Virus genome (UHGV): UHGV-0183130
Reading direction: 5' to 3' (one strand)
Length of the DNA: 40,647 nt
Source of the DNA: a virus
Shown here: piece after piece, positions 1 through 32,669 of the stretch
Layout of the letters: each line of letters starts with the position of its first letter
How positions within the stretch are numbered: the stretch's first letter is position 1
Notes under the pieces: generated by a model
Told to the model about the DNA's origin: nothing
The model's database searches: none
Seen by the model: only the letters and a program-made list of their open reading frames with translations
Program-made: the position numbers and the translations under genes

Positions 1-3000
1 AAATGCAAACTGGCCACTGTCAGCGTAAAATTTGCCATGTAATTCAGCGTTTCCATTTTTATCAATGCGCCAGCCTGTTGAACCCGCTACGAAGTTATTC
101 GACTGGATAAAATCACCAATTTTGGCATTGGTGATACTGCCATTCTGAATAAACGCATCGCTGATAAACACCTGACCATTAACAACAGCAAAGGGTGAAT
201 ATTGCGTATCACCGCTGCCACTCATCAGGACGAACTGATTGGCGTTAAATCCGACACGAGTGACTACCGGCTTACCCGCCTCCGCCAGCACCGCAATCGA
301 CATTCCGGCGTTATACATCACACCGTTAATCCGGACCCCAGTTTTGAGGGTGTAAATCGCAGAGGCTCCGGTAGCATCAACCACGGCAGTAAGCTTGTCC
401 TCCAGTGCGGCAGTTACATTATTGAACTGCGCCTTCACCTGCGTCGACATTTCAGCCATGGCCTTATCGACCTGCGCAATGGTCGTTTTAACCACCAGAA
501 TATCCGCGCGTACCTCGCCGTACTGCGCCCACTGATGTTCCACGGTTGCATGGTTGGCCAGCGCGTTCTGCCATGCGGCTTCGAGGTTGGTATCAATGTC
601 GCCTGTCAGGCGGTCACCGTCTGCAGACGTCAGGAAGTCATCAGCAATATCGCCCAGGTAGTCGTCAGCATTCGCGTTGGATACACCACGAACCCAGTCG
701 GTCCAGCCTGATTCATTACCCGTTCTGTCAACCAGCTGCGCGCGGTACCAGAACTCCTGTCCCGCCTTCAGTCCCAGTTGGGTGTATTCGGCTGACGGAT
801 AAGGCACATCCGACAGCAATAGAGGATTAGAGAAATCACTGTTCGCGGTGTACTGAATTTCCGTTTTCAGCGTATCCCCGGTGTTAGCCGGGAATCCCCA
901 GTTCAGGCGAATCCCCCAGTTGATCGGCGTTGTCGCAAAGCCGACAGGTTTCGGTGGATTTCCCACCTTGCCCGTCAGCGTTTTCTCTTCGGAGTAGCCC
1001 CAGCCAGAGGAAATTTCAGCGGCATTAATGGCACGCACACGCACGAGGTAGCGCCCGGCATAAATACCCGATACATCAAATGAGGTGGTGGAGCTGCGCG
1101 GCACGTTTACCCAGTTACCATCATTGCGGCGCCACTGTGCCTCGTAGGCGATAGCATTCTGCGCCTGGTCCCAGCTCACACGCATGGTTTCGACGCTGAT
1201 ATTCTGCTGCACCACTGAAAACGAGCTGATCACAATGTTAGCCGGCGGCGACTGGTTACCAGGCGGGATTACACTCACGGGCCGCTGGTCAATGATGGCT
1301 CCGGTATCGATACGGGCATATTTATCCGGGTCATGCCATGCGCCGGTAATAGAGAAAGTGCCATCATCATTATCGGAGACGCTGACAACTCGATACTGCT
1401 GGGCGTAGAGTTCATCTGACTCAACCACCCATACAGCTTCGGCCTGTGGTGTCTCACTGTATGCCGTGGTGACTGTGACTGATTCCCCATTAATCGCCTG
1501 AATAGTCCTGCTCTGTGACGCACCGGAGGGAAGATTGATAATAAGGCGATCGCCTGCTGCTGCATCAACTACGCGGTCAAGTTTTATCACGCGACCGTTA
1601 ACAGCACTGATGCGGCCACCCATAACTTTGCCGGACAGAAGCTCGTCTGACACGGCGATGATGTATCCCGGCTGCGGAATGTTTCCGTCCAGGCCAACAT
1701 CAAACGAAACAACACGATCCTTATTGTTGGTGAGAATACCCCAGCGCCCCTTTCGGTTCGCTTCTGATTGACGGGTACAACCGATGGCTGTCATTTCCAG
1801 CTGATTAAATCCGTACCGGGCCACCAGAGGCTGCTCAAATACTGGCTCCATCGCATCCGCATAAGCGTTACCCGGATCAGACCAGGAAACCAGCGCGGTG
1901 GTATACCGCGTTTTTGTCGTGCTGCTGGAATAGGTAAAGCGTCCGTCGATAACGTTAGCGCGGGTGTAAGCGTAATCCACATCTCTCGGCATATCGGCAA
2001 GCGCAACAATCTGATCACCGCCCCAGTACGTCATACCCCGGAATATAGCCGCAAAGTCACGCAGCACAGTGTAAGCGTCATTCCTGTCCTGAACATAGAC
2101 GTTACAGGTATAGCGTGGCTCTGTCCCGCTTCCACCCTTTCCATCCGGTACCGGCTGATCGCAATACTGCGATACCTGGTACAACGTCCATTTATCGATG
2201 TTGGCTGCACTCAGGCGATTACCCAGACCAAAGCGATCGGTAATAACCAGATCGTAAAATATCCACGCCGGGTTATCGGTCCAGGCCCACTTAAACGCGC
2301 CCTGCCATGTACCACTATAAGTCCGCGTATCGGGGTCATAGTTATCAGGCACTCGGATCACCCGGCCACGTGGTTCACAGGATATCTGTGGAATCGAACC
2401 ATTGAACTGACTTGAGTCGAATTCGATGTACAGCAGCGCGGTGTTCGGATAGCGCAACTTGGCATCAATCACCTCCGTGAAGCTTTGCAGCGTCATCGTG
2501 TCGCCGATCTTGGCGCTGTTTGCGTCAGCGTTAATCTTACGCAGTCGGATTGTCCAGGTGCTGCCAGCCTGCGGTAAATCAATACGGTGGCTGCGCTCAT
2601 AACCAGACGTCGTTTTGCCGGTTACGCTGGTATTAAGAACGGTTTGCCAGGTCCCACCATCAGTTTGCAGGTCTATTGCATAATTGATGGAATACCCTAC
2701 CAGATCGCCGTTGTCCTCCTGCTTAAACAGAGAAGGCCATTTCAGTCGCAGGCGAACGGCTGATAGTTGGGTGTTGGTGAAAGTACGCGTCCAGGCTGTT
2801 GCGCTTGATACTTCAGTTCCAACGTTGATTTCGTTTTCGGTACCGGGAATGCCCTGAATGTAATTTTGTGCCTGAGTTCCCGCGCGAAATTCCCACGTCA
2901 CGCCGCTAAAGTTTTTGGTGCCATCGGAGTTTTCCAACGCCGTGCCGTCCAGGTAGATATTTTTTCCGGTTAATTGCCCTGCAAATTCCCCTTCCCCAAG

Positions 3001-3114
3001 CGCAACGAGGATTTTGGCCTTCGCTACAGATTGCAGATCATCAGGCTGTTCGGTAGGGGTTCGTGAACTGGAACTGCCGCCCTTGCGGCCTTTAATCGGG
3101 ATTGCTGTAGCCAT
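1..3114 (-). CDS. J: Tail tip / host specificity protein J (central tail fibre), partial: C-terminal part lies beyond window start
   Basis: Hand translation of minus strand from ATG at 3114 gives an open frame to position 1 (about 1038 codons, no stop), beginning MATAIPIKGRKGGSSSSRTPTEQ and containing blocks resembling lambda gpJ (e.g. YPNTALLYIEFDSSQFNG, TCNVYVQDR). Not in ORF track because it has no in-window stop. Follows I as in lambda. Confidence 0.85.
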   Translation of the reverse strand, partial: MATAIPIKGRKGGSSSSRTPTEQPDDLQSVAKAKILVALGEGEFAGQLTGKNIYLDGTALENSDGTKNFSGVTWEFRAGTQAQNYIQGIPGTENEINVGTEVSSATAWTRTFTNTQLSAVRLRLKWPSLFKQEDNGDLVGYSINYAIDLQTDGGTWQTVLNTSVTGKTTSGYERSHRIDLPQAGSTWTIRLRKINADANSAKIGDTMTLQSFTEVIDAKLRYPNTALLYIEFDSSQFNGSIPQISCEPRGRVIRVPDNYDPDTRTYSGTWQGAFKWAWTDNPAWIFYDLVITDRFGLGNRLSAANIDKWTLYQVSQYCDQPVPDGKGGSGTEPRYTCNVYVQDRNDAYTVLRDFAAIFRGMTYWGGDQIVALADMPRDVDYAYTRANVIDGRFTYSSSTTKTRYTTALVSWSDPGNAYADAMEPVFEQPLVARYGFNQLEMTAIGCTRQSEANRKGRWGILTNNKDRVVSFDVGLDGNIPQPGYIIAVSDELLSGKVMGGRISAVNGRVIKLDRVVDAAAGDRLIINLPSGASQSRTIQAINGESVTVTTAYSETPQAEAVWVVESDELYAQQYRVVSVSDNDDGTFSITGAWHDPDKYARIDTGAIIDQRPVSVIPPGNQSPPANIVISSFSVVQQNISVETMRVSWDQAQNAIAYEAQWRRNDGNWVNVPRSSTTSFDVSGIYAGRYLVRVRAINAAEISSGWGYSEEKTLTGKVGNPPKPVGFATTPINWGIRLNWGFPANTGDTLKTEIQYTANSDFSNPLLLSDVPYPSAEYTQLGLKAGQEFWYRAQLVDRTGNESGWTDWVRGVSNANADDYLGDIADDFLTSADGDRLTGDIDTNLEAAWQNALANHATVEHQWAQYGEVRADILVVKTTIAQVDKAMAEMSTQVKAQFNNVTAALEDKLTAVVDATGASAIYTLKTGVRINGVMYNAGMSIAVLAEAGKPVVTRVGFNANQFVLMSGSGDTQYSPFAVVNGQVFISDAFIQNGSITNAKIGDFIQSNNFVAGSTGWRIDKNGNAELHGKFYADSGQFAF

Positions 3115-3168
3115 ATTGCGCCCATAAAAAAAGCCACCATAAGGTAGCCTGAAAGGAAGATTATTTTG

Positions 3169-3759
3169 TTATTGCTGGTCTTCGACGTATATACCAGCAG
3201 AGATGATCGCCCCGCCAATACGCCTGCGTCCGTATAGAAGCGGAACTGGATTACCCTGAGCAGCAGTGTTAGTTACACCACCGAATGCATACGAAGCCCG
3301 ATTTTCGGCATCCTGTTTGCTGGCAAGTCCTGCTGGCTGTGGCGAAAGCATTTGGATTACGCCTCCAGCCATTAATGCAACACCGGGTGCGACCAATGCC
3401 ATACTTGCACCGCCAGTAAAACCTGACAAAGCGTAGCCAGCTACAACAAGGACGGCACCTAATATGGTTTGTAACAGGCCAGCTTTTTTACTACCAATAA
3501 CTACTGGCACGATCCGGATCACTTCACCTGTCGCCGGAAAGCCTAAATCATCTTCCCCAATATTTTTCTTTCCTCGAAAAACTGCATATGTCAGACCGCG
3601 CTGTTTACTTGAATTCATGAAGGCCTCAAACCCTTTCACTGTTGCAGCTAGCGCTCGACAGGCTTCTCGGGTTGAGCTAATTAAACGATGATGCGTCTTA
3701 CCAAAGGTTTTGCCAAGAATCCCGCTCAGTTCAATTTGGGTCATAACTTCTTGCTGCAT
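3169..3759 (-). CDS. I: Tail assembly protein I
   Basis: C-terminal region (LLQTILGAVLVVAGYALSGFTGG...NPVPLLYGRRRIGGAIISAGIYVEDQQ) matches lambda gpI pattern. Start moved to ATG at 3759 (MQQEVMTQ) preceded by GGAGAAGAG SD. Confidence 0.8.
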   Translation of the reverse strand: MQQEVMTQIELSGILGKTFGKTHHRLISSTREACRALAATVKGFEAFMNSSKQRGLTYAVFRGKKNIGEDDLGFPATGEVIRIVPVVIGSKKAGLLQTILGAVLVVAGYALSGFTGGASMALVAPGVALMAGGVIQMLSPQPAGLASKQDAENRASYAFGGVTNTAAQGNPVPLLYGRRRIGGAIISAGIYVEDQQ

Positions 3760-3770
3760 ACTCTTCTCCA

Positions 3771-3796
3771 ATAAAAAAGCCACCCGGAGGTGGCCA
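3771..3796 (-). terminator. Rho-independent terminator after the lipoprotein gene
   Basis: On minus strand: GCCACC-UCCG-GGUGGC hairpin followed by UUUUUUAU; sits between lipoprotein stop (3815) and I start. Confidence 0.55.
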
Positions 3797-3814
3797 TTTA
3801 TAAAATGACTCGAA

Positions 3815-4240
3815 CTATATGGTTGATGCTCTGATATCAAGTCCGGAATTAGTATCTCCGGTGATGCGGAATTTTTGATGTTCACGAGCATTGATCTGCG
3901 TGGCAGTCTCTTTGAGTGGTTGTCCGACCTGCATTCCACATAATCCTTTACCTTTTGAATCGCCAGATATTCCTAGAATATGTCGGCCGGATGTAACATT
4001 GATATCGATCGTTTCTCCCGTATCAATTCTTGCATAGGATTTTCCATCAATAGTTACTTCTACAAAGCATCCACCACCAGCAAACCATCCTTGATCTCGT
4101 GTAATTGTTATCACCGAGTCACCAGCCCCCTTCAGCAATACACGTTCAGATGGTACTTGTTTTGCAACGGTAGAATTCACCGCCGTGGTTGAACACCCAG
4201 CAACGCTAAGCGCAATTAGAAGCAGCAAAGTCTTTTTCAT
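3815..4240 (-). CDS. Predicted lipoprotein (accessory/moron gene)
   Basis: Start at ATG 4240 gives MKKTLLLLIALSVAGCSTTAV: signal peptide with lipobox VAGC; SD-like GGTGA upstream; own terminator downstream. Confidence 0.6.
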   Translation of the reverse strand: MKKTLLLLIALSVAGCSTTAVNSTVAKQVPSERVLLKGAGDSVITITRDQGWFAGGGCFVEVTIDGKSYARIDTGETIDINVTSGRHILGISGDSKGKGLCGMQVGQPLKETATQINAREHQKFRITGDTNSGLDIRASTI

Positions 4241-4350
4241 ATCCCTATCACCTTTGATTAATTTGCCAAAAGAGTAGCAGGGATCCGGTAACGACAAAAC
4301 CCGCAGTTAAGCGGGTTGGGATAGCAAAAACATTTTAACTGCTTTGAAAT

Positions 4351-5094
4351 TTATGCCACATCAGCACCATGAATCAGATGGCGCAACGCATCAATTCCGT
4401 TAGTGTTGTACCGGAACGCTTCAACCTGTTTACTTGAGTAGGCCGACTTGTCCAGAAAGAACTTGCCATGCGCTTCTGTCTTCAGCTTGTGTGTGTTAGC
4501 AACGCGTCCAATTTTCTGAGCAGAAACCCCCAGCATCTCCCCCACCTCACTCGCAGTGTGGTAATGCTCCTCGATAACAGGTAACGGGATGGCGTCATAA
4601 CCAATAAGCGGATTAATCAACGATGCCGTGAGCACCTGATGTGCCATCGGATCCAATCTAGGAAGCAGAGTAATGATTTCCCGCGCGCTCGCGATATTCT
4701 TCTCCAATGCCTGGGCTTTCAACTGTTCTGCCTTAGCCAATCGGTACTCAGTGATACCTGTGTTGCTTTTTGGCATCGCTGGTAATACCTGCATATCTTC
4801 CAGCTTATCAACCAGAGAACGTCGAACGGCTTTCGATTCACGAGCGGCTACTCGGAGGGCTTGCTTGATAGACATTGTAATTACTTCAATGTCTTGACCA
4901 TTTTTACGACCTACACTTTTTGTGTAGGTCTCCCCTTCAAGCTCATCAACAACCTTCTCAATGAACTTGTTATTTCGGACAGCCGGCTCACCGCATTGCT
5001 TTCGCGCAGCATTCACCATCTCCAGCAAGTACTGGCTATCAATGGTTTTCTCGGTGACATTAGCGCTATTTACTGCTAAATTTAATGAAGTCAT
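4351..5094 (-). CDS. Phage antirepressor-like protein (ANT/KilA-C type C-terminal domain)
   Basis: 247 aa ORF; C-terminal segment HYHTASEVGEMLGVSAQKIGRVANTHKLKTEAHGKF resembles the conserved C-terminal domain of phage antirepressors; adjacent to Arc/Mnt-like regulators. Confidence 0.5.
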   Translation of the reverse strand: MTSLNLAVNSANVTEKTIDSQYLLEMVNAARKQCGEPAVRNNKFIEKVVDELEGETYTKSVGRKNGQDIEVITMSIKQALRVAARESKAVRRSLVDKLEDMQVLPAMPKSNTGITEYRLAKAEQLKAQALEKNIASAREIITLLPRLDPMAHQVLTASLINPLIGYDAIPLPVIEEHYHTASEVGEMLGVSAQKIGRVANTHKLKTEAHGKFFLDKSAYSSKQVEAFRYNTNGIDALRHLIHGADVA

Positions 5095-5171
5095 TGGTTG
5101 GACCCTTATGACAGATTTATGGATAGCCGATAGCCCTAACTATCGGCTTTTCTATTTGCAGCATTGCAAAT

Positions 5172-5840
5172 TCAGTAGATTCTTGGCCTTTCTCCTTCCT
5201 GAAGCTGTAGTTCAGCATGAGTCTTAATCATGTACATAAACGCGGCCCCATCATTGAAACGATCGTGAAGACGGCCTGCGAGCGGAGACTCAATCGCCCT
5301 CAACGCTGGCTCTATCTGGTTAAACCATGCTTCACACATAATCTCGAAATAATCGAACATTGCGTTTGCATTGTGGGCGTGGACTTCTCGATCGCTGAGC
5401 ATCTTCGGTACTGGAAAGTTAATAGATACCTCACGGTCCAGAATGTCTAACACCCAGTGTCGGAATTCTTTAGCAACCGGAGTTCTGGCAAACATAGCGA
5501 CCATGTGTGCGCCACGTAGAGAAAAAACCCTAGTTTCCTGATGCCCACCAGGGGTGGTCAACTTGACCACCCTTGTCATTTTTTCTGTAAACTCATCAAT
5601 ATGACGAGCAAAAATTCGCTGAACAGCTTTATCGTCTGCATATTGAAGCGCGTAACCAATCTGATTAGCGGTCAGCCAGATGCCATCGATATCAGGAGCC
5701 GGCTGCAGAGAAATGCCATGGAAGTTCAGCTCTTCTTTCGTTACACTGTTCATGTCGATATTTCCTGCCAAGGATTTCTTCGATAAGAAACCCAGGGTGT
5801 TCGCGCACTCCTGGGTTTCACTGTTTTTATGCTTGTTCAC
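5172..5840 (-). CDS. Phage antirepressor-like protein (AntA/Bro-N-like N-terminal region)
   Basis: 222 aa ORF (track start is GTG at 5840 with GGGGGGAAG SD; alternative ATG at 5753). Segment ELNFHGISLQPAPDIDGIWLTANQIGYALQY resembles antirepressor N-domains. Directly downstream of the Arc-like gene, as ant follows arc in P22 immI. Confidence 0.5.
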   Translation of the reverse strand: MNKHKNSETQECANTLGFLSKKSLAGNIDMNSVTKEELNFHGISLQPAPDIDGIWLTANQIGYALQYADDKAVQRIFARHIDEFTEKMTRVVKLTTPGGHQETRVFSLRGAHMVAMFARTPVAKEFRHWVLDILDREVSINFPVPKMLSDREVHAHNANAMFDYFEIMCEAWFNQIEPALRAIESPLAGRLHDRFNDGAAFMYMIKTHAELQLQEGERPRIY

Positions 5841-5994
5841 TCTTCCCCCCTTCTAATCCGTACGCTTTCCTCAACTGATAGATGAGCTCAGTATTGAACT
5901 GACGGCACTCATCTTCCCCATTTCTCTCTATCGCCAACCGGACATCTTCAGGAAATCGAACCTTACGCTGGTACATATCTTTAGCTTTTTCCAT
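5827..5994 (-). CDS. Arc-like ribbon-helix-helix repressor
   Basis: Start at ATG 5994 (SD GGAGGGG) gives 55 aa MEKAKDMYQRKVRFPEDVRLAIERNGE..., size and pattern like P22 Arc. The longer track ORF would read through the operator palindromes. Confidence 0.6.
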   Translation of the reverse strand: MEKAKDMYQRKVRFPEDVRLAIERNGEDECRQFNTELIYQLRKAYGLEGGKSEQA

Positions 5995-6007
5995 AACCCC
6001 TCCAATT

Positions 6008-6075
6008 ATGCCCCACGGTGGGACACATAAAGTGTCACACCGTGCGTCATTGATGTCAACCCCACCGTGGGGCAT
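6008..6075. promoter_or_regulatory. Operator region between divergent Arc-like and Mnt-like genes
   Basis: Perfect 15-bp inverted repeat ATGCCCCACGGTGGG (6008-6022) / CCCACCGTGGGGCAT (6061-6075), each holding an 11-bp palindrome (CCCACGGTGGG, CCCACCGTGGG), flanking a central near-palindrome GACACATAAAGTGTC. Confidence 0.5.
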
Positions 6076-6113
6076 AATTTACATAATGTGAACTTTTTGA
6101 GTGAGGCAACCAA

Positions 6114-6557
6114 ATGAGCAGAGAAGATCCTCAACTAAGAATAAGATTACCAATTGAATTAAAAGAAAAAATTGAAGATGCAGCAAAATCCAATAACCGC
6201 TCTATGAATGCTGAAATAGTTCAACGTCTCGACAACAGCTTCCTTAGCGAATTACGTGAAGATGAAGTAATTTCTGCTCAAGATGCAATTCAACTTGTTG
6301 AAAAAGCGAGGGATGAACTCTCTGAAATAATATTCAAAAGGACTTTTTCAGAGATCAACAAAAAGGTACGGATTGGTCATTCCACATTCCATATTCATCT
6401 CAGCGATCTTGAGTTGGACGGACTTAGTGACGATGATTTCAACACTGTTTTCAAAAAAACTTTTAGTCGCCTAAAAGAGTTAGGTTACGAAGTCTGGGAA
6501 AAGACTTGGGATGCGGATGGTTTTGGGGTGGAAATTCCAGGGGAACAGTCCACCTAA
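6114..6557 (+). CDS. Mnt-like ribbon-helix-helix repressor with C-terminal extension
   Basis: N-terminus MSREDPQLRIRLPIELKEKIEDAAKSNNRSMNAEIVQRLDNSF parallels P22 Mnt; 147 aa, AT-rich; divergent from the Arc-like gene. Confidence 0.6.
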   Translation: MSREDPQLRIRLPIELKEKIEDAAKSNNRSMNAEIVQRLDNSFLSELREDEVISAQDAIQLVEKARDELSEIIFKRTFSEINKKVRIGHSTFHIHLSDLELDGLSDDDFNTVFKKTFSRLKELGYEVWEKTWDADGFGVEIPGEQST

Positions 6558-6563
6558 ATGGGC

Positions 6564-7274
6564 TTAAGCTAGAGTCTTATAGCGAAGTACCTTCATTGTT
6601 CTTTCTTGCCAGTAGCCGCCGTATGGCACACGTTGGCTGAGGTGCCCATACAGGTGATGCAACAGCATGTTACCTTCCAGTAGAATTCCCGCGTGATTCC
6701 ACTTATTGGCCTGGACCTGCATGATAACCATATCACCTGGCTGCGGTACGCCACTGAATTCACGGAATCCGCATTCATACCAGCAATCGTGGTAGAAGTT
6801 TTCGGGATAACTGTCTTCCCACCAGGGATAATCCACGCGGTAATCCGTCAGCTCAATGCCATGCGTTTGCCGGAAATAGCTCATCACCAGCCCCCAGCAA
6901 TCGAAATGACCGAGCACAAATGGGCGCTCAAGTAGCGGCAACTCGCCCCGCGGCTGAATGGTACGCAGATCCCCCTCCGGCCAGCTGAGGATATGCCACG
7001 GAAGTAACGTAGCGTCACACTGTGCCTTATCCAGTTCGCTCGGCTGTGTCGTTGCGTCCGGGTGACTGTGGACAATGGCAATCACTGTTCCCCAGTCTTC
7101 GGCAGCGGCATAATCTTCCGGCGACAGGTGGAAATGCTCTGTCGGATCGGTTGCCAGATTACGGCAAGGAATGTACCGCTGCACCCTGCTTTTTTGCACC
7201 ACTACGCCGCAGCATTCGCGGGGATATTCAGAAGCGGCATGCGCCATAATGGCGTCGATAATTTTCTGACGCAT
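6564..7274 (-). CDS. K: Tail assembly protein K
   Basis: 236 aa; lambda position between L and I; strong resemblance to gpK including the HSHP motif region (AIVHSHPDATTQPSELD). Confidence 0.85.
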   Translation of the reverse strand: MRQKIIDAIMAHAASEYPRECCGVVVQKSRVQRYIPCRNLATDPTEHFHLSPEDYAAAEDWGTVIAIVHSHPDATTQPSELDKAQCDATLLPWHILSWPEGDLRTIQPRGELPLLERPFVLGHFDCWGLVMSYFRQTHGIELTDYRVDYPWWEDSYPENFYHDCWYECGFREFSGVPQPGDMVIMQVQANKWNHAGILLEGNMLLHHLYGHLSQRVPYGGYWQERTMKVLRYKTLA

Positions 7275-7275
7275 A

Positions 7276-8031
7276 TCAACTCCTGATCAGGGATGTGCCA
7301 GGGAAACCACCGAACGGCAACTCGTTCCCCTCGCCATGCCTCAATTTGCACGCGGTGAGCGTGCCGTTACATTCATCGCGCGAAGGATCGGTAACAGGAT
7401 TATTAAGTTTGTCGAAATAGCGAGTTCCGGCGTAGTCACAACCATCACCGGAGCGGTATTTGTTACGGATGCACCAGGTACAAAGCGAATGTAACTGGCG
7501 CGTCGGGATCATCAGCCCCTGCAGGTCCATCGGACTGGACAACGTAAACGCCACCACCTCGTTGGTTTCAGTGCTCTTGGCGTCTATGTAAAACACCTTC
7601 AGCTTTTCCTGCTGAGGATCCCCAGACGGGTTGCCCTCCGGATAGTTTTTCGCATCCAGATACTGCGCCAGTGTGTCATGAATGGTGACCTTTGCCTGCA
7701 GCAGGTCATCATAAGCAAGACACAGCGCCGTAATGGAACTATCCAGGTTAGCGACCGAGAGCGTTGGCTGCGCACTGGTCCCGTCGGTCGCAGTCTCAAT
7801 TCCCTCTATCTGGCAGGGCCAGGCTTTATATTCCTGCCCCTGCCACCAGATCGATTTCGCCGGTAGCTTATTTTCATCTCCACCAGCAGCGGCAATTTCA
7901 TCGGGAGTGTGGGCAATATTGTGGGCGTGGAAGCGGAGAACGTCGGAAACACCAAATGCGGTGCCATCGACATCAAAAAGCCGGACAACATTGCCCGGCT
8001 CAAGTTTCTGATAATCACTGTTTAAGCTCAT
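7276..8031 (-). CDS. L: Minor tail protein L
   Basis: 251 aa; C-terminal cysteine cluster (CTWCIRNKYRSGDGCDYAG...CNGTLTACKLRHG) like lambda gpL; position between M and K. Confidence 0.85.
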   Translation of the reverse strand: MSLNSDYQKLEPGNVVRLFDVDGTAFGVSDVLRFHAHNIAHTPDEIAAAGGDENKLPAKSIWWQGQEYKAWPCQIEGIETATDGTSAQPTLSVANLDSSITALCLAYDDLLQAKVTIHDTLAQYLDAKNYPEGNPSGDPQQEKLKVFYIDAKSTETNEVVAFTLSSPMDLQGLMIPTRQLHSLCTWCIRNKYRSGDGCDYAGTRYFDKLNNPVTDPSRDECNGTLTACKLRHGEGNELPFGGFPGTSLIRS

Positions 8032-8378: not shown

Positions 8379-10895
8379 TTACCTCTGTTTTGTTGCATTC
8401 CAGATAATGCCTCCGGGTCGGACCTCTCTGGTGATACCTTCCCTGATGGAACTGTTGATCACCTGCTGATAGGCTTTCCCCAGCGCATCGCCGTTTCCTT
8501 TCTGCTGACCGGAATCCCCCTGGCCTGTTGTAACCGAAACCGGTGCATACACGCTGACACCAAAAGGAGAAGCAACGCCAGCGCCACTCCCCCCGACCAG
8601 GCCACCAGTCGCATAACCACGCATCATGCGATAAAGGTTGCCGACACCGATTCGGTTGGTGGCTTCCTGCGTAAAGACAAACTCTCCACGGTGCACCACA
8701 CCTGCAGGCTCATACTTACCGCCGGTCCCGGTAAAACCACCGCCAGCAAAACCCAGCGCAGAAGTGGCAGAACTGACCAGGCCAGCCATGGCCTGCTTCA
8801 TCAGGATCTGCGTCAGCATCGACAACGTGGAACGGGTGAAATCTGCCCAGTTTGCTTTCCCAGTCGTCAGCATATCGGCCATATTCTGGCTGATACCATC
8901 GAATGTGGCTGAAGCAGCGGACTTCATCGAACCATAGGCATCAGCTGCTGAATCGGCATAGTCAGCCCACGCTGATTTCGCCCCGGCCTGCCAGTTGCCA
9001 CGTAGCTCGTCCTGCGCGGCATAATATTTCTTCAGTGCATCCAGTTCGTTCTGATAACCCTGATCGGTGTCCGTACCGCCGGCATTCATCCAGCCCTGCC
9101 GCAGCTGTGCCTCTTCGTTTTGCCGCTGCGCGCCGCGACTGCTCATGCTGCCCCCGGCCACAAGCGCTCGTGTTTTCTCCCCAATCTGGGTAACGTACTT
9201 CTGCGAGCTGTCCTGCAGGCGGTTTAACCGTTCCTGGGCAACAATCTGATCGCCCAACCGGGCATTCACTTCGGCCCGCGCCAGTACCTCGTCTTTGTTC
9301 GCCAGCACCGATTTTTCATCGGCGGTCAGCGCGCGCTTTTTGGCGGCCTCTTCCAGCACCGAAAAGCGGGATTGCTGTTTCCACAATTCCAGCCGCTGCT
9401 GGCTGATGGTATCCGTGATGCTCTTATGCTCCTGCAGAGTGCGTAACTGCGCCTCCAGCTCCAGCGTCTGTGCGCTGGCAGTATCGACACTTTTTACACC
9501 TGCAGGTGTTTTTACCGCTGAAGGGGCTTTGGGTTTCTTCAGCGAGTCGTCGTATTCTTTTTTCGCAGCTTCCAGATTGATGTTGTAGTCAGCCTGGAGG
9601 ATCCGTCCGTCTTTCAGCGCCTTGTTCAGTTCATTCTGACGGGCCGTGTACTTCTCCAGCGCAGTCTGCGTCTTTGCATAATTCGACTGCGCCTGCGCGG
9701 CATACTTCTGGCGGTCAGATTCAATCACTGCCTCGCGGGCGGCGTTATCCTCAGTGGCCTTTGCCACACTGGCCTGCTGCTGAGCCATTTCCAGTGCAAG
9801 GCGGGCAGACTCCCGATCGTTCCAGTAGCTGGCGCGCGCATCATCATTGACATAAGAATCACCTTTACGCAGATTCCAGATTTCATCCGCCCGCTTAAAG
9901 GCCGCTTCCGCTTTGGCAACCATCTCCTGCGTGGTGTCAGGCCGCCCAATATCGAGCGCCGCATCCCACATCGATTTAAAGGCACGCTTCAGGCTGTCGG
10001 CAGCAGTCTCAATCGACCCCATATTGTCGCGCAGGCTCTTTGTCTGTTCGCGAAAACCGTTCGTCGCCGCATCATTAGCTGCCTGTAGAGCCCCGGCCTC
10101 ATCCCCGGCACGCTGCAGTTGCGCCACATAAGCAATCTGTTCCGCGGTAACGTTGTGGAACTGTTGCGCCATAGCAATAAGGCCTGAAGTCGGATCATTC
10201 GTCAGTTTGCCAAATGCCGCTGCCACCTTGTCGACCGGCACGCCCGACGCATCGGTGAACTTCGCTACCGCCTGACTCATCTCATCGAACCGGGCACCGG
10301 CACGCACTCCGGCGTTGACCAGCTCCGTCAGCGCGCTGCTGGTCTGGTTAAACGTGAGTCCCGCCTGCTCGCCGGATTTCGCCAGCACCAGCATGCGGTT
10401 TGAGGTCAGCCCGGCAGTGTTACCGGACAGGACCAGCGTTTTGTTGAAATCAGACAGCGTGGACGAGCCCTGATACCAGGCGTAAACCACCGCTCCAGTG
10501 GCGGCAGCCAGCGCGCCAACACCTACCATCACCGGCGATATGGTGCCCAGCAACGCCCGAAAGGTCGGAATAATACCGCCGAAGGAGTCTTTCACCTGAC
10601 CGCCCTGCTGCAGCAGGATAAGCCACGGACTCTGCCCACCGGCCAGCTGGGTGGCAATATCCGTAAACTGCGCAGGCAGCATACGCATCGCCGCGTTGTA
10701 CTGTCCTACAGAAATGCCGGCCTTCTTCGCGGCGCTCTCCTGGCGGGTAAATGACTGCTGCACCTTCAGCGCCGAGTCATTCGCTGCGTCACCCGTCTGC
10801 TTAAACTGCCTTTTTACGTACTCCATCTGCTCGTTGAACTTTGACGAATTAACGTCAAGGTTAACGACCAGGTCACCCACTGCCGTCTGGGCCAT
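8379..10895 (-). CDS. H: Tail length tape measure protein H
   Basis: About 838 aa; start moved to ATG 10895 (MAQTAVGDLVV, SD AGGAGG), paralleling lambda gpH MAEPVGDLVV; many conserved blocks (AGISVGQY..AAMRMLPAQFTD..QSPWLILLQQGGQVKDSFGG). Confidence 0.9.
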   Translation of the reverse strand: MAQTAVGDLVVNLDVNSSKFNEQMEYVKRQFKQTGDAANDSALKVQQSFTRQESAAKKAGISVGQYNAAMRMLPAQFTDIATQLAGGQSPWLILLQQGGQVKDSFGGIIPTFRALLGTISPVMVGVGALAAATGAVVYAWYQGSSTLSDFNKTLVLSGNTAGLTSNRMLVLAKSGEQAGLTFNQTSSALTELVNAGVRAGARFDEMSQAVAKFTDASGVPVDKVAAAFGKLTNDPTSGLIAMAQQFHNVTAEQIAYVAQLQRAGDEAGALQAANDAATNGFREQTKSLRDNMGSIETAADSLKRAFKSMWDAALDIGRPDTTQEMVAKAEAAFKRADEIWNLRKGDSYVNDDARASYWNDRESARLALEMAQQQASVAKATEDNAAREAVIESDRQKYAAQAQSNYAKTQTALEKYTARQNELNKALKDGRILQADYNINLEAAKKEYDDSLKKPKAPSAVKTPAGVKSVDTASAQTLELEAQLRTLQEHKSITDTISQQRLELWKQQSRFSVLEEAAKKRALTADEKSVLANKDEVLARAEVNARLGDQIVAQERLNRLQDSSQKYVTQIGEKTRALVAGGSMSSRGAQRQNEEAQLRQGWMNAGGTDTDQGYQNELDALKKYYAAQDELRGNWQAGAKSAWADYADSAADAYGSMKSAASATFDGISQNMADMLTTGKANWADFTRSTLSMLTQILMKQAMAGLVSSATSALGFAGGGFTGTGGKYEPAGVVHRGEFVFTQEATNRIGVGNLYRMMRGYATGGLVGGSGAGVASPFGVSVYAPVSVTTGQGDSGQQKGNGDALGKAYQQVINSSIREGITREVRPGGIIWNATKQR

Positions 10896-26626: not shown

Positions 26627-27622
26627 TTAAGCTTTCGCAATTACGCCGATCGCCAGCGCCCGATCCATAAAACGCAGTAGCAGCTCAAGCTGCGTACCAT
26701 GCTTCTGCTCGAATGCTGGTACATCGGCGTGTAACTCGTCGTGGCACTCTCTGCACAGAGGGATCACGAAGAGGTCATGGGCTTTTGTTGCTGTACCACC
26801 CATACCGTGCCCTACGATATGGTGCGGATCATCTGCTGGCCGTCGGCAACACTCACAGGGTTGTGTTTTAACCCAGCGGGTGTACGTCTCATTTATCCAG
26901 CGGCGTCGCTTTGGCCTGAGCATGAAAGATTCTGGAGACTCCGGATCAACAGAGAGCGTGAGGATCTTCTTCGCCTTCTCCTGCACGAGGCTGGTTGCAG
27001 ACGCTGAAGGCACAATGTCGCTTTCCCTCATGACAGAGCGGATGTTCTCATCCGGGAGGCGCAGCCCTTTGTGCGCAACGCTTTCCGGAATAACATCAGC
27101 CAGGTCGTTTCTGACCATCCACCAGCACAGTTCCGGAAGCGTCAGGATATGCGACTCGGGAAAACCAGAATCACGCCGAATGACTTCCAGAATCCAGGAT
27201 ACCAGGTTTCCTGCCGCTATACCTGCAAGCTGTTCGGTATGCTGCCCCGACAAAGTGTGATCGCAATGCCAGCACAGGCGAATGCTTCCTGGTGGGTGCC
27301 GCATTGTTGTGAAGTTCTTGTCGTGCCACGATGAATGTGGCCACTGGCATTCAAACCGAGAACTCAGCCACTGCTCAAGGGAAGGAAGCCCACCGGCACG
27401 CTGAATAACCCGCTCATTCCCGAAGACCTGCCGCATTACCGGATCATCAGCCAGCGGCTGAATGGCTGCCGGAACAGCCCCGGTACTGAATGACGCCATT
27501 TCTTCTGGTTCAGGTTCGAGCAGAACGCGACCACGCATGAAGAGGTGCATCAGTTCCGCGCCGGGACGAAACAACACAATCCCCATACGATGGGCTACTT
27601 CAGGAGTTAACAAAGCCCTCAC
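26627..27622 (-). CDS. DUF968-family phage protein (YdfU-like) with C-terminal Cys/His cluster
   Basis: 331 aa; C-terminus CECCRRPADDPHHIVGHGMGGTATKAHDLFVIPLCRECHDELH looks like an HNH/zinc-finger type motif; GTG start overlapping Rha stop (GTGA). Confidence 0.5.
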   Translation of the reverse strand: MRALLTPEVAHRMGIVLFRPGAELMHLFMRGRVLLEPEPEEMASFSTGAVPAAIQPLADDPVMRQVFGNERVIQRAGGLPSLEQWLSSRFECQWPHSSWHDKNFTTMRHPPGSIRLCWHCDHTLSGQHTEQLAGIAAGNLVSWILEVIRRDSGFPESHILTLPELCWWMVRNDLADVIPESVAHKGLRLPDENIRSVMRESDIVPSASATSLVQEKAKKILTLSVDPESPESFMLRPKRRRWINETYTRWVKTQPCECCRRPADDPHHIVGHGMGGTATKAHDLFVIPLCRECHDELHADVPAFEQKHGTQLELLLRFMDRALAIGVIAKA

Positions 27623-28305
27623 GCCGCCTGCCCCCCTGCAATATGTTCAGCCCACAAACCACCAATCCAGCGTACTCCCTTGGCAGTGAAACGCGTCTGG
27701 CTAAATGCGTGATTGGATGTGTTCGATGTTCCCGTCTTAACTTCAAATCTTCCTGCGGAAATGTGCTGCGCCATAGGGGTAAGTGTGCCGCCGAGGCGAT
27801 ACAGGATATTGCGTTCAATAAGGAACAGGCGGAACTCAGTTTCTTTTGCGTTGAGCAATTTGGCTACCTGCCGGAATGACATGGAGCCTTTTGCAGAGCA
27901 ATAACGATCAACAAACTCCACTTTTGGCGCCGCAGCTGCCAGCTGGATGGTCAGTTGCTCTTTCTGCTCGGCTAAATCAGCAGCCAGGCGAAGCGCTTCC
28001 GGCAATGAGCGGGGAACACTGACACTCTGCCCTTCTTCCAGTTCCTGCCACCGATCAACAACCGCAGCGGTAAATTCTGGTGACAGTCTGGCAACAATCA
28101 CCAGAGAGTCGCGTTTGTTAAAACGATACTCCTGGTAAACATTGCCGTTATGCTCAAAATCGAACTGCGCCAACGGCGCGGTTAAAATTCCCGCAGCAAC
28201 AAGACGCTCAGCCGAGCGTTTCACGTCACTGTGTTTACTCTGAACCAGATCCGCAATATCACGGCTGGACATTGTTACTACACCATTCACGATTAACTGG
28301 CTCAT
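27619..28305 (-). CDS. Rha-family phage regulatory protein / antirepressor
   Basis: Start at ATG 28305 (SD GGAG); N-terminus LIVNGVVTMSSRDIADLVQSKHSDVKRSAERL fits Rha N-domains; C-terminal half resembles antirepressor C-domains. Confidence 0.6.
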   Translation of the reverse strand: MSQLIVNGVVTMSSRDIADLVQSKHSDVKRSAERLVAAGILTAPLAQFDFEHNGNVYQEYRFNKRDSLVIVARLSPEFTAAVVDRWQELEEGQSVSVPRSLPEALRLAADLAEQKEQLTIQLAAAAPKVEFVDRYCSAKGSMSFRQVAKLLNAKETEFRLFLIERNILYRLGGTLTPMAQHISAGRFEVKTGTSNTSNHAFSQTRFTAKGVRWIGGLWAEHIAGGQAA

Positions 28306-28318
28306 ACTTTTCTCCATA

Positions 28319-28705
28319 TCAGGCGGCTGCACCCGCCGGTTCATATCTGCTGATCGTTATCTCTACCCGACCTTTCGGCACTACGGGTCCCCATTCCACC
28401 AGCATGCGCTTAATCTGGCTGTCGTCTTCCCAGACACCCGCATGCGTCAGCGCGTCAAACAGGGCTTTGTTGTAATTATCGATATCCCGGCGGCGCGCAT
28501 CCGGCGGGTACAGAGTGATTTCTACCGCTGCCAGTTCAGTCGATGGCTTCGGGAGACGTCGTAATTGCTCAATGATCGCCACGCAGGCAGCGCTCTGGTA
28601 TTTACGGCCATCAGCGCTAATGAGGTGACGACCGGCCAGCGGCCCCTTGTTAGGGGCGCGCCAGTAGGTGTTCACGCTCGGAGGGAACGGGAGCACAAGT
28701 TTCAT
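28319..28705 (-). CDS. rusA: Holliday junction resolvase RusA
   Basis: Start at ATG 28705 (SD AGGAGG): MKLVLPFPPSVNTYWR ... DARRRDIDNYNKALFDALTHAGVWEDDSQI parallels E. coli RusA. Confidence 0.75.
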   Translation of the reverse strand: MKLVLPFPPSVNTYWRAPNKGPLAGRHLISADGRKYQSAACVAIIEQLRRLPKPSTELAAVEITLYPPDARRRDIDNYNKALFDALTHAGVWEDDSQIKRMLVEWGPVVPKGRVEITISRYEPAGAAA

Positions 28706-32664: not shown

Positions 32665-32669
32665 GCGGA

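Follow-up and report, generated by a model that had tools for sequence, protein, structure and literature searches.

The window, by which we mean the whole 40,647-nucleotide (40.6-kb) stretch of DNA analysed here, carries a lambda-like prophage (Citrobacter/Salmonella) whose tail genes K and I are separated by an AT-rich insert of ~2.8 kb (3778-6560). The insert has a GC content of 0.385-0.475 compared with 0.53-0.57 in K, L and M, in agreement with the AT-richness relative to the flanking tail genes reported in the initial annotation, and the four ORFs named there (6114-6557 on the + strand; 5827-6075, 5172-5840 and 4351-5094 on the - strand) were all recovered. The module sits inside the late operon with K on one side and I on the other; its arc-like and ant genes lie on the tail-gene strand, co-oriented with late transcription, and its mnt-like gene is antisense to it (Table 1). 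DNA homology to HK97/HK022-type phages spans 6591-7390 and stops at ~6591, close to the 3' end of K. At the other side, the insert ends at ~3778, beyond a lipoprotein gene that encodes a signal sequence and Cys (MKKTLLLLIALSVAGC) and whose product is called 'Lipoprotein', 141 aa, in public genomes; the product of tail gene I is called as 196 aa in identical prophages. We know of no genes between K and I in lambda. HK97 has a 321-bp gap with an annotated terminator at this position, and the K-I junction is therefore a known place for inserted genes.

Table 1. Features of the K-I insert and of the tail genes that flank it
Feature	Position	Strand	Evidence or detail
Tail gene I, left flank	3169-3759	-	phrog_32 'tail assembly protein' 2e-75; Pfam Lambda_tail_I
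Terminator-like site beyond lipoprotein gene	3795-3778	-	Consensus scan
Lipoprotein gene, 141 aa, extra inserted gene in the same insert	3815-4240	-	phrog_890 'lipoprotein' 1e-42
Terminator-like hairpin, 3' of 247-aa gene	4298-4317	-	Consensus scan
Second cargo gene, 247 aa, KilA-N/APSES-like N-domain and shuffled C-domain	4351-5094	-	phrog_1726 'anti-repressor' 9e-77
Candidate second antisense RNA, 'sar2'	5054-5155 (promoter and RNA); RNA ~5089-5155	+	Promoter and terminator scans
First antirepressor-type gene, Bro-N and P22_AR_C-like, 193 aa (ORF to 5840, 222 aa)	5172-5753	-	Bro-N 7e-9; phrog_245
sar-type antisense RNA, two hairpins and U-run	5754-5829	+	Rfam sar RF00262, 31.2 bits, E 0.002, full length
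Arc-like ribbon-helix-helix repressor, 55 aa	5827-5994	-	Pfam Arc E 0.0039; phrog_228 'Arc-like repressor' 1e-4
Operator-like site 1, GCCCCACGGTGGGAC, over predicted arc/ant transcript start (O_mnt position in P22)	6010-6024	.	Exact CCACGGTGG core
Pant-like promoter, TTGACA (6059-6054), 17-bp spacer, extended -10 TGtGACACT (hexamer 6036-6031)	6031-6059	-	Read from sequence
Operator-like site 2, GTCACACCGTGCGTC, within Pant-like spacer (O_arc position in P22)	6034-6048	.	Sequence
Promoter-like site for mnt-like gene, TTGATG-17-CATAAT	6050-6078	+	Consensus scan
Operator-like site 3, ACCCCACCGTGGGGC, in spacer of the mnt-like gene's promoter	6059-6073	.	Exact core match
Long-form Mnt-like ribbon-helix-helix repressor, 147 aa	6114-6557	+	Pfam Arc 3e-14; phrog_1388 5e-67
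Tail gene K, right flank	6564-7274	-	Prok-JAB 1.6e-22 and NlpC/P60 1.3e-21; phrog_30 1e-133

The best PDB match of the 147-aa protein is P22 Mnt (1mnt, E 5.6e-7, residues 3-79), in an alignment that takes in Mnt residues 2-72, nearly the whole chain, and the two proteins share 30% identity over 86 aligned positions. Together with the Pfam Arc match, this supports its earlier description as a Mnt-like ribbon-helix-helix (RHH) repressor. The predicted structure consists of the RHH region, a long helix (55-87) and a small alpha/beta C-terminal domain (88-142), which gave no informative fold match and is almost confined to the protein's own family. The same protein also has weak Pfam matches to the FitA-like, HicB and TacA antitoxin RHH families and a weak match to Csa3 in the PADLOC/defence model search, and its N-terminus hits PHROG families with the label 'partition protein ATPase'.

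The gene for the Arc-like protein most likely starts at 5994, and not at 6075; a GGAGG ribosome site lies at 5998-6002, and public genomes call the product 'Arc family', 55 aa. Its Pfam Arc score of 17.4 bits is below the gathering cut-off of 20.4, and it shares 24% identity with P22 Arc (BLASTP E 1e-5 in a single pairwise comparison). The size of the protein, its position and its R-x-P...N-x-E motif fit Arc, and on the sequence evidence the homology of the small ORF to Arc appears weak but consistent.

The divergent mnt-like and arc-like genes are separated by 119 bp containing three sites with a CAC(C/G)GTG core. Sites 1 and 3 form the left and right arms, respectively, of a perfect 19-bp inverted repeat and are the only two exact copies of CCAC(C/G)GTGG (CCACSGTGG) in the 40.6 kb. 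Site 3 is kept in all related loci, save for single-base changes at or beside the central position, and the -10 and -35 of the mnt-like promoter in which it lies are kept in Citrobacter, Kluyvera, Yersinia, Rouxiella, Dryocola, Morganella and Mixta loci. The opposing Pant-like promoter, with its weak -10, is absent from the list of a simple promoter scan; its hexamers are kept across genera (GACAAT in Yersinia and Morganella), and P22 Pant has the same layout, TTGACA-17-TATATT. Site 2 is invariant in most related loci, and Mixta has a symmetrical variant of site 1, GTCACACGGTGTGAC. In P22, O_mnt (AGGTCCACCGTGGACCT, core CCACCGTGG) lies 6 nt from the Pant -10, the same distance as site 1, and the order and spacing of O_mnt, O_arc and the Pant -35 are the same as in the control region of the module. 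Promoter hexamers and operator-like sites are thus conserved across seven genera. Judged by these comparisons, the control region is homologous to that of P22 immI and not merely analogous, with the operators being predicted. Site 2 resembles sites 1 and 3 and not the P22 Arc operator, so that the two repressors may divide their tasks differently than in P22.

A sar-type RNA exactly fills the gap between the arc-like gene and the first ant gene. It runs antisense to the junction of these two genes as well as to the Bro-N gene's AGGAAA ribosome site, and a Psar-like -10, TACACT, lies at 5742-5747. The score of the RNA does not reach the gathering score of Rfam sar (43 bits), which suggests that the sequence has diverged past the boundary of the curated family; related loci score 26.9-34.3 bits and P22 itself, with its genuine sar at the equivalent place, 97.8. 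A purpose-built model (R1), constructed from the window's type of sar, found one copy per related module examined, P22 sar included. The fold z-score of the RNA is -5.9. When covariation was counted on the model-fitted alignment, which is biased towards the structure, 95.5% of cells were paired and 12 of 23 pairs had changes on both sides; 0 of 500 shuffles were as high and slid controls gave 34-55%. Compensatory changes therefore appear to maintain both sar hairpins.

For the Bro-N gene, 5753 is the most likely start (193 aa), which adjoins the sar 5' end as in P22, and the N-terminal extension of the 222-aa ORF is probably the sar terminator hairpin read as codons. The ORF matches phrog_245 'anti-repressor Ant' with an E value of 9e-39. 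In the Pfam search its N-domain is Bro-N, with P22_AR_N missing, and P22_AR_C is found at 3.8e-4 and 20.9 bits, under the Pfam cut-off of 22.4. The 'Rha' protein of the JEP4 immI region, 39% identical to the Bro-N protein, contains Bro-N and a clear P22_AR_C (2e-13). Comparison with P22 Ant gave no significant pairwise alignment, and homology between the two proteins appears to be partial and at the domain level only.

For the 247-aa protein we found no Pfam family and no PDB sequence match, and its structure model is poor; its N-domain resembles the DNA-binding APSES/KilA-N fold, and its 'anti-repressor' label is a PHROG annotation. Pfam ANT was found in none of 27 members of its family, hhalign gave no match to the window's own Rha+ANT protein, and there was no significant pairwise similarity to P22 Ant. 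Signs of a KilAC/ANT type are a weak phrog_130 match (0.0024) and one source name, 'Antirepressor protein C-termin...', and relatives of the cargo proteins are annotated 'KilA protein' or 'Rha protein'. The initial annotation had described both cargo genes as antirepressor-like: domains and PHROG labels (Bro-N, phrog_245, phrog_1726) speak for this, but significant similarity to P22 Ant does not extend to either. Domain searches did not assign the RHH proteins and the downstream genes to unrelated families. Position, family labels and domains are what suggest antirepressor activity for both cargo proteins.

The ribosome site of the 247-aa gene is covered by the candidate RNA sar2, which follows a promoter, GTGACA-17-TGcTAAATT, at 5054-5082. 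Its 5' hairpin carries an anti-start-codon and an anti-Shine-Dalgarno sequence, a terminator (5125-5148) is followed by a U-run, and the fold z-score is -3.9. Across 51 distinct relatives both promoter and terminator persist: TG and a TAnAnT -10 occur in 51/51 and the GTGACA -35 in 47/51, although the N-terminal peptides differ (24 kinds). All 38 distinct sar2 variants fold into two hairpins and a U-run, and compensatory changes occur in three of the nine pairs of the terminator stem. No Rfam family is found on the + strand at this locus, and we consider sar2 a candidate for a previously undescribed antisense RNA.

In all eight of the occurrences listed, the identical insert lies between K and I, although the prophages differ in their head modules, of which there are three; Y. 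pestis and Kluyvera have it there as well. More generally, prophages of Enterobacterales commonly carry the cassette, whether at K-I junctions, in P22-like phages or in other places, and many genomes of Citrobacter and Salmonella encode the exact module proteins. The cargo varies: in TL-2011b and Mixta, genuine P22_AR_N (+/- P22_AR_C) Ant homologues lie behind the same mnt-like/arc-like/sar cassette, as do P22-Ant-like genes in two further loci (L134 and L137), and in another two (L004 and L007) the Bro-N gene is missing or its slot is filled by a different gene.

Taken together, the Mnt homologue and the probable Arc homologue, the Mnt-type operator cores, the sar-type RNA and the topology support the P22 immI logic (mnt / arc-ant) first proposed for this locus. 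The biology of Mnt, Arc, sar and Ant in P22 and the concept of the 'ant moron' have been described (PMC2629481, PMC12111858), and we think it likely that the insert is an immI-type 'ant moron', i.e., a self-regulated antirepressor cassette homologous to P22 immunity I, residing in a late (tail) operon. In a lysogen, the Mnt-like repressor would be made from its own promoter and would bind the operators with a CCAC(C/G)GTGG core; with site 1 covering the leftward Pant-like start and site 3 lying in the mnt-like promoter, the arc-ant operon would be silent. When phage DNA enters a cell without the Mnt-like protein, the Pant-like promoter would fire and give a burst of the Arc-like, Bro-N/P22_AR_C and 247-aa KilA-like proteins, after which the Arc-like protein, with site 2 as its likely target, would turn the promoter off. 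By pairing, the sar and sar2 RNAs would each block the ribosome site of a different cargo gene and limit its translation, also when the message is the Q-antiterminated late transcript, which has to run through the insert on its way to I and J. The cargo proteins may bind CI/C2-type repressors (HTH and S24, like the prophage's own CI) and lift immunity, so that the phage could grow on immune lysogens or cross-induce co-resident prophages. The sequence analysis directly shows the homologies of the genes, how operators and promoters are laid out and conserved, how the antisense RNAs are structured and conserved, and that the insert recurs. The assignment of repressors to sites, the timing of expression, the action of the RNAs and, above all, the antirepressor activity and its targets are set out here as we infer them.

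The setting in the prophage adds two further elements. A third antirepressor-like gene, given as 27619-28305 in the initial annotation, is indeed present at 27619-28344 (-) and encodes Phage_pRha and ANT/KilAC domains. The CI of the prophage (33540-34199) has HTH and S24 domains; visual inspection of its translation shows Ala-Gly, GESM and TVKKL-type motifs, and with these and the S24 domain it looks self-cleavable, so that an antirepressor would be unnecessary for SOS induction. It is tempting to speculate, although we rate this as rather unlikely, that the module is an immI variant with two layers unseen in P22, namely a dedicated antisense RNA for each antirepressor-type gene (with sar2 as a new RNA family travelling with the KilA-like gene) and a Mnt C-domain that senses a signal, ligand or protein, and that it works as an SOS-independent switch inducing this or co-resident prophages in Citrobacter, Salmonella and Yersinia.

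Control could be of the immI type while the cargo, as Bro-N, KilA-N and Rha-type proteins, consists of DNA-binding regulators, host-killing 'Kil', anti-defence or exclusion factors, a minor but real possibility in our assessment. Toxicity of such a cargo would explain why two repressors and two antisense RNAs keep it under tight control, and the lack of significant pairwise similarity of either protein to P22 Ant, the absence of Pfam and PDB sequence matches and the APSES/KilA-N-like N-domain of the 247-aa protein, the 'KilA' and 'Rha' labels of relatives and a self-cleavable-looking CI are all compatible with it. However, the family in the first slot has the P22 antirepressor C-terminal domain, clear in the JEP4 homologue, a genuine P22_AR_N-type Ant fills this slot in otherwise homologous cassettes, and neither cargo protein matches any PADLOC defence model. 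It is very unlikely that the insert is a decaying, non-functional remnant of illegitimate recombination, passive in the tail operon, as every ORF is intact, numerous genomes of Citrobacter and Salmonella encode the exact proteins, different genera retain the operators and promoters, both sar hairpins are held by compensatory changes and the sar2 promoter is retained in all 51 distinct variants. The AT-rich composition does look foreign, the Bro-N gene is absent or replaced in some relatives, and degraded ant morons are known in P22-like phages (PMC2629481).

An origin of the RHH proteins in a toxin-antitoxin or partition system, and not in an immunity region, is suggested by the antitoxin-family and 'partition protein ATPase' matches of the 147-aa protein and seems to us highly improbable: those matches span the generic RHH motif only, P22 Mnt itself is labelled 'partition protein ATPase' in some records, and the best solved relative is Mnt, with a sar RNA and Mnt-type operators present. 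No toxin or ParA domain is adjacent; the neighbours are Bro-N and KilA-like genes, which gave no toxin or defence model match. Finally, the cargo could be a LexA-controlled antirepressor of the Gifsy/186/N15 type, coupling induction to the SOS response. Salmonella Gifsy antirepressor genes lie outside the immunity region (PMC3121763), and a section title of that paper describes their products as small proteins; related prophages have dinI and umuD near tail fibre genes. As there is no LexA box (CTGT-N8-ACAG) anywhere in the 40.6-kb window and Mnt-type sites occupy the control region, we regard LexA control as extremely improbable and disfavour it together with the toxin-antitoxin/partition origin.

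The locus shows the P22 immunity I circuit to be portable, with repressors, predicted operators and antisense RNA travelling together, beyond P22-like podoviruses and into tail operons of the lambda type in prophages of Citrobacter, Salmonella, Kluyvera and Yersinia pestis. Such cassettes can let a phage override the immunity of resident prophages or cross-induce them, with consequences for how stable prophages are and how genes are transferred in Enterobacterales of clinical relevance. The locus also provides a long-form Mnt repressor, with its extra domain of no informative fold match, and, in sar2, a concrete candidate for a new family of small antisense RNAs. Public annotations are inconsistent on gene starts, which we correct here for the Arc-like protein (55 rather than 82 aa) and for the Bro-N protein (given as 193 or 222 aa).

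The closest known system is P22 immI (the 'ant moron'; Villafane et al., 2008, PMC2629481), which shares with the module divergent mnt and arc-ant units with a homologous Mnt and a probably homologous Arc repressor, a Mnt-type CCAC(C/G)GTGG core over the Pant transcript start at 6 nt from the -10, a further site in the Pant spacer, a sar that occupies the arc-ant junction and extends with its 5' end right up to the start codon of ant, and the succession of late gene, opposite-strand mnt, co-oriented arc-ant and next late gene. In contrast, P22 is a podovirus with its cassette at the gene 16-tailspike junction, whereas the module lies at the K-I junction of a lambda-type siphovirus, where Mnt is a 147-aa long form with an additional C-terminal domain, the spacer of the mnt promoter contains a third operator-like site and an additional ~25 bp separates the start sites. 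What occupies the O_arc position resembles the Mnt-type sites and not the Arc operator of P22, Bro-N takes the place of P22_AR_N as the N-domain of Ant, and a second cargo gene with its own predicted antisense RNA follows, and then a lipoprotein gene. With Rfam sar (RF00262), the sar-type RNA has in common a length of 68-76 nt, a 5' hairpin loop with an anti-Shine-Dalgarno sequence, a terminator hairpin, a U-run and the antisense position.

Domain-shuffled phage regulators of the KilA / Bro / Rha / ANT kind were reportedly described by Iyer, Koonin and Aravind in 2002. Like them, the 247-aa protein has a C-domain that is fused elsewhere to KilA-N, Bro-N or Rha N-domains; unlike them, it lacks a Pfam KilA-N or ANT match. 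The antirepressor genes of Gifsy, 186 (Tum) and N15 (AntC) also lie far from the immunity region, and LexA-controlled antirepressors can act in trans on the repressors of other prophages (PMC3121763). The module differs from these in having no LexA box, with RHH repressors and antisense RNA as the predicted control. To our knowledge, the Gifsy/186/N15 antirepressor proteins are unrelated to its cargo proteins. Also close to the module are the immI region of the P22-like phage JEP4 (MT740315) and the related region of Klebsiella phage KP12. Unlike the module, the JEP4 cassette is at the canonical podovirus site, between gene 16 and the tailspike gene; the repressor opposite it is c2-like (HTH+S24), and a short mnt lies farther downstream. 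In both phages, however, a Bro-N/P22_AR_C 'Rha' protein (39% identity) is followed by a 'KilA' protein with 64-68% identity to the 247-aa protein, a sar-type RNA follows the small arc gene, and a sar2 promoter and terminator precede the KilA gene.

The prophage is lambdoid: its tail genes lie on the minus strand in the order V, G/T, H, M, L and then K, followed leftward by I and J. The initial annotation had placed divergent Mnt-like and Arc-like ribbon-helix-helix repressors and two antirepressor-like genes between K and I, and every reading frame that it listed there is present with exactly the boundaries reported. Both repressor genes match Pfam Arc, the arc-like gene below the gathering score. 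The module had also been called AT-rich, and this was borne out by a GC content of 0.385-0.475 in the insert versus 0.53-0.57 in the tail genes alongside. Similarity to the DNA of HK97/HK022-type phages covers 6591-7390 and stops near the 3' end of K. The elements of the insert are collected in the table.

Genes, RNA elements and predicted operators at the K-I junction
Feature	Coordinates	Strand	Evidence or sequence
Tail gene K	6564-7274		Prok-JAB + NlpC/P60
mnt-like ORF	6114-6557	+	Pfam Arc, E 3e-14
Site 3 (predicted operator)	6059-6073		ACCCCACCGTGGGGC; CAC(C/G)GTG core
Site 2 (predicted operator)	6034-6048		GTCACACCGTGCGTC; CAC(C/G)GTG core
Site 1 (predicted operator)	6010-6024		GCCCCACGGTGGGAC; CAC(C/G)GTG core
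arc-like ORF	5827-6075	-	Pfam Arc, E 0.0039, under gathering score
sar RNA match	5755-5822	+	Rfam RF00262
Bro-N ORF (first cargo)	5172-5840	-	Bro-N, E 7e-9; weak P22_AR_C; phrog_245 'anti-repressor Ant', E 9e-39
sar2 terminator-like hairpin + U-run	5125-5148 onwards	+
sar2 5' hairpin	between promoter and terminator	+	GUCAU...AUGAC
sar2 promoter-like site	5054-5082	+	GTGACA-17-TGcTAAATT
247-aa ORF (second cargo)	4351-5094	-	phrog_1726 'anti-repressor', E 9e-77; no Pfam family
Lipoprotein gene	3778-4240	-	141 aa; phrog_890; own terminator-like hairpin
Tail gene I	3169-3759		left of insert, then J

The 147-aa product of the mnt-like gene is a long-form Mnt (phrog_1388). Its closest solved relative is P22 Mnt (1mnt, E 5.6e-7), nearly the whole chain of which is matched by residues 3-79, and the two proteins are 30% identical over 86 aligned positions. 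In the structural model the ribbon-helix-helix helices are followed by a long helix (residues 55-87), at the place of the oligomerisation helix of Mnt, and by an additional small alpha/beta C-domain (residues ~88-142 in the model; residues 85-147 are encoded by 6366-6554, +). A fold search with this C-domain gave no informative match, and only 11 proteins among 1.8 billion cluster representatives contain it; those inspected resemble full-length or truncated members of the same repressor family. The arc-like gene most likely starts at 5994, downstream of a GGAGG ribosome site, and would then encode 55 aa, as called in public genomes. Aligned end-to-end, this protein and P22 Arc are 24% identical (E 1e-5 in a single pairwise comparison), and the R-x-P...N-x-E motif is retained.

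In the 119 bp that separate the two repressor genes, 6004-6022 and 6061-6079 form a perfect 19-bp inverted repeat, and a third site resembles its arms. The exact 9-mer CCAC(C/G)GTGG has two copies in the 40.6-kb window, both of them in this control region. In matching orientation, the P22 control region reads arc, AGGTCCACCGTGGACCT, ATAGTAGAGTGCTTCTATCAT, TGTCAA (the -35 of the arc/ant promoter Pant) and mnt, where we take AGGTCCACCGTGGACCT to be the known Mnt operator and ATAGTAGAGTGCTTCTATCAT the known Arc operator. The P22 promoter consists of TTGACA, a 17-bp spacer holding O_arc, TATATT, six bases and O_mnt; the minus strand of the window carries TTGACA, a 17-bp spacer holding site 2, the extended -10 TGtGACACT, six bases and site 1. 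Because the order matches, site 1 corresponds to O_mnt by position and sequence and site 2 to O_arc by position, the sequence of site 2 being unlike the P22 Arc operator. Site 3, in contrast, is without a counterpart in P22; it lies within the spacer of a rightward promoter, TTGATG-17-CATAAT. The hexamers and sites are kept in Kluyvera, a second Citrobacter, Yersinia pestis, Rouxiella, Dryocola, Morganella and Mixta, and site 1 is variable across these genera yet symmetrical, its Mixta form being GTCACACGGTGTGAC. We infer the assignment of the Mnt-like and Arc-like proteins to individual sites. Two further candidates were rejected. The left-hand CATAAT (6005-6010) lacks a -35, is not conserved across genera and, if taken for a second leftward promoter, would start transcription inside the ribosome site; the palindrome GACAC-N5-GTGTC (6022-6036), considered as an operator, shows no conservation of its left half.

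When 3000-7500 was compared with Rfam, a single match stood out, a sar RNA antisense to the junction of the arc-like and Bro-N genes, which spans the full model at 31.2 bits (E 0.002; gathering score 43). The genuine sar of P22 (97.8 bits) fills the arc-ant junction identically, with its 5' end adjoining the ant start codon, and sub-threshold sar matches occupy the equivalent place in three related loci. Since MAFFT misaligned the 5' stem of the sar-type RNAs, we used a covariance model (R1) built from four window-type sequences. R1 detected exactly one copy per related module examined, antisense and beside the arc-like gene, and found the sar of P22 (E 6e-4) as well as those of JEP4, KP12, TL-2011b, Y. 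pestis, Morganella and Mixta. In the resulting 14-sequence alignment, whose fitting by the model is a caveat for the covariation counts, 95.5% of cells pair and 12 of the 23 pairs have changes on both sides. Sliding the pairing partners by 1-3 columns lowered pairing to 34-55%, and none of 500 shuffles reached the observed values on four of five measures (2/500 on the fifth). Against shuffles, the fold of the window RNA itself is better by 5.9 standard deviations, and a conserved -10-like TACACT (5742-5747) stands where P22 has TATACT.

The position of sar bears on the start of the Bro-N gene, which is annotated publicly as 193 or 222 aa, with 5754-5840 as the stretch in dispute. The 222-aa reading was suggested by a seemingly conserved 'KCANT' N-terminal peptide and was rejected, as this stretch is the sar terminator hairpin. 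The residues ETQECANTLGF are codons encoded by the hairpin, and the conservation of the peptide thus mirrors RNA structure rather than protein. As the N-terminal extension is the hairpin read as codons, the gene most likely starts at ATG 5753, with an AGGAAA ribosome site, and encodes 193 aa. Elsewhere in the window, a candidate RNA consisting of a hairpin and U-run (32664-32742, +) opposes the 3' end of the cII-like gene (32670-33221, -) in antisense, in the layout of lambda OOP RNA; it matches the R1 sar model weakly (21.8 bits, E 0.03) and has a fold z-score of -2.5.

A second antisense RNA ahead of the 247-aa gene, here called sar2, is a well-supported prediction from sequence. The predicted RNA (~67 nt) has a fold 3.9 standard deviations better than that of shuffles; the loop of its 5' hairpin includes the complement of the ribosome site of the 247-aa gene, and the stem spans the start codon. 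We compared 80 viral contigs with a homologue of this gene, which yielded 51 distinct versions of the region. In all 51 the -10 element (TG + TAnAnT) stands at a constant distance from the start codon; 47 have GTGACA as the -35 and 4 have TCGACG, and the N-terminal peptide overlapping the promoter takes 24 different forms. Each of the 38 distinct RNA variants folds into a pair of hairpins with a U-run, and 3 of the 9 pairs of the terminator stem show compensatory changes. MAFFT with RNAalifold recovered the terminator only; the 5' hairpin was missed because the 5' hairpins are of at least three unalignable types. As the U-run is confined to the antisense strand, it is not the terminator of a cargo mRNA. 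The Rfam search of 3000-7500 gave no family on the plus strand at sar2, and the R1 sar model did not detect the site.

With respect to the cargo proteins, the domains of P22 Ant are P22_AR_N and P22_AR_C. The first cargo protein of the window combines Bro-N with a P22_AR_C match slightly under threshold, and its homologue in the immI region of the P22-like phage JEP4 (39% identical) has Bro-N and a clear P22_AR_C (E 2e-13). Homologous mnt-like/arc-like/sar cassettes in TL-2011b and Mixta carry a genuine P22_AR_N-type Ant in the first slot, and P22-Ant-like genes precede the 247-aa gene in some viral contigs. As both types occur in homologous cassettes, the first slot is interchangeable between P22-type and Bro-N-type proteins with a common Ant C-domain, which supports a predicted functional equivalence of the Bro-N-type cargo to P22 Ant. 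Neither cargo protein aligned significantly with P22 Ant in pairwise BLASTP.

An antirepressor role is less certain for the 247-aa protein, for which Pfam and PDB sequence searches returned no match. For its family, a PDB profile search and a Pfam scan of 27 members gave chance-level matches only. The C-terminal 138 residues are found elsewhere fused to KilA-N, Bro-N or Rha N-domains, and the Bro-N-type and 247-aa genes are adjacent in ~70 of the 80 viral loci. The AlphaFold model is of poor quality (pLDDT 54, unmodelled from residue 160), and we used its N-domain match alone. A separate Rha-family gene had been claimed as well, and 27619-28344 indeed encodes Phage_pRha and ANT/KilAC; the profile of the 247-aa family did not match this protein (probability 0.5%). 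Adjoining it and RusA in the early region are two neighbouring DNA methyltransferase genes (28702-31465, -), one of 629 aa with a C-5 cytosine methylase domain and the other of 293 aa and Dam-type (N6-adenine).

A search for near-identical DNA in phage and E. coli genome collections returned the K/L tail genes only (~80% identity), with the insert absent, so that E. coli is not the source of the window. Exact-protein look-up points to the Citrobacter freundii complex or Salmonella instead: many genomes of the C. freundii complex and of Salmonella enterica encode the proteins of the insert, labelled only 'Arc family DNA-binding protein', 'Bro-N domain-containing protein' or 'hypothetical protein', and the exact Mnt-like protein has 177 blocks indexed in the assembly collection. 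Among the matches listed, the order K, mnt-like, arc-like, (Bro-N), 247-aa, lipoprotein, I, J was found in 8 of 8, and the prophages at those eight places carry three head modules, of lambda E/D type, HK97 type and ClpP-fused Gifsy-2 type. The Bro-N gene is missing in one locus and a different 214-aa gene takes the slot in another. Given this recurrence and the slot differences among loci, the insert acts like a mobile unit whose first cargo slot varies.

Cassettes of this kind lie at the K-I junction in this window, in related loci (L093-L095, L099, L104, L112, L113, L118), in Kluyvera and in Y. pestis; in other tail clusters, upstream of the K homologue; in P22-like phages, at the canonical gene 16-tailspike position; and beside unrelated tail or baseplate genes. 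In HK97 (locus L173, 1153-1473) the K-I gap measures 321 bp and contains an annotated putative terminator; its protein numbers skip from Gp19 (K) to Gp21 (I), and gp22 and gp23 are morons between I and J. The HK97 gap with its terminator and the I/J morons mark both junctions as known, recurrent insertion points. The lambdoid prophage of Y. pestis NCTC5923 (locus L014, 4629-8114) combines a mnt-like/arc-like/sar cassette with a 364-aa Bro-N gene at the K-I junction, and has an IS200-type element between tail genes L and M (9458-9581; Rfam STnc490, 152 bits). In JEP4 (locus L001, 3287-6219), an arc-sar-Bro-N-sar2-KilA operon stands opposite a c2-like HTH+S24 repressor, not Mnt, and a short mnt lies farther downstream; the c2-like-repressor-facing arrangement also occurs in L098, L103, L116, L171 and L172. 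JEP4-type loci are the same cargo wired differently. The lipoprotein gene of the window lies between the antirepressor genes and I, and the lipoproteins that other K-I inserts carry in this position, including that of Y. pestis (L014, 3621-3971), are unrelated to it or only 30-35% identical. Lying beside tail-tip genes, it is a candidate moron for receptor blocking or superinfection exclusion.

By homology to P22 (PMC2629481, PMC12111858), the Mnt-like protein would keep the leftward Pant-like promoter off in the lysogen. In an infected cell without Mnt-like protein, a burst of Arc-like and cargo proteins would ensue, to be ended by the Arc-like protein. For their part, sar and sar2 may curb translation of both cargo genes, also when the message is the antiterminated late transcript, which has to traverse the insert if I and J are to be expressed. 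The cargo, in turn, may inactivate CI/C2-type repressors. The CI of the prophage (33540-34199) contains HTH_3 and Peptidase_S24, and Ala-Gly, GESM and TVKKL-type motifs were recognized by eye in its translation. As this CI looks self-cleavable, the cargo more likely serves anti-immunity on infection or prophage cross-talk than SOS induction.

There is a small chance that the cargo has another function under immI-type control, as a DNA-binding regulator, in Kil-type toxicity or in anti-defence; PADLOC and NCBIfam gave neither a defence system nor a named family for any cargo protein. A toxin-antitoxin, partition or LexA-type system is not supported, and the whole window contains no LexA box. 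The insert is unlikely to be a decayed remnant, since its reading frames are intact, the cassette is conserved and RNA base pairs covary. An immI-type antirepressor cassette is the reading that we prefer. The cassette is common in public genomes and therefore not rare biology; in the literature searched, however, no immI-type module is described at a lambda-type K-I junction, nor a long-form Mnt or second antisense RNA. The most testable new element is sar2. The immI region, or 'ant moron', is well known from P22-like phages (PMC2629481), and the topology of the window is that of P22: a late gene stands on either side, mnt is transcribed against the late genes, and arc and ant run in their direction.
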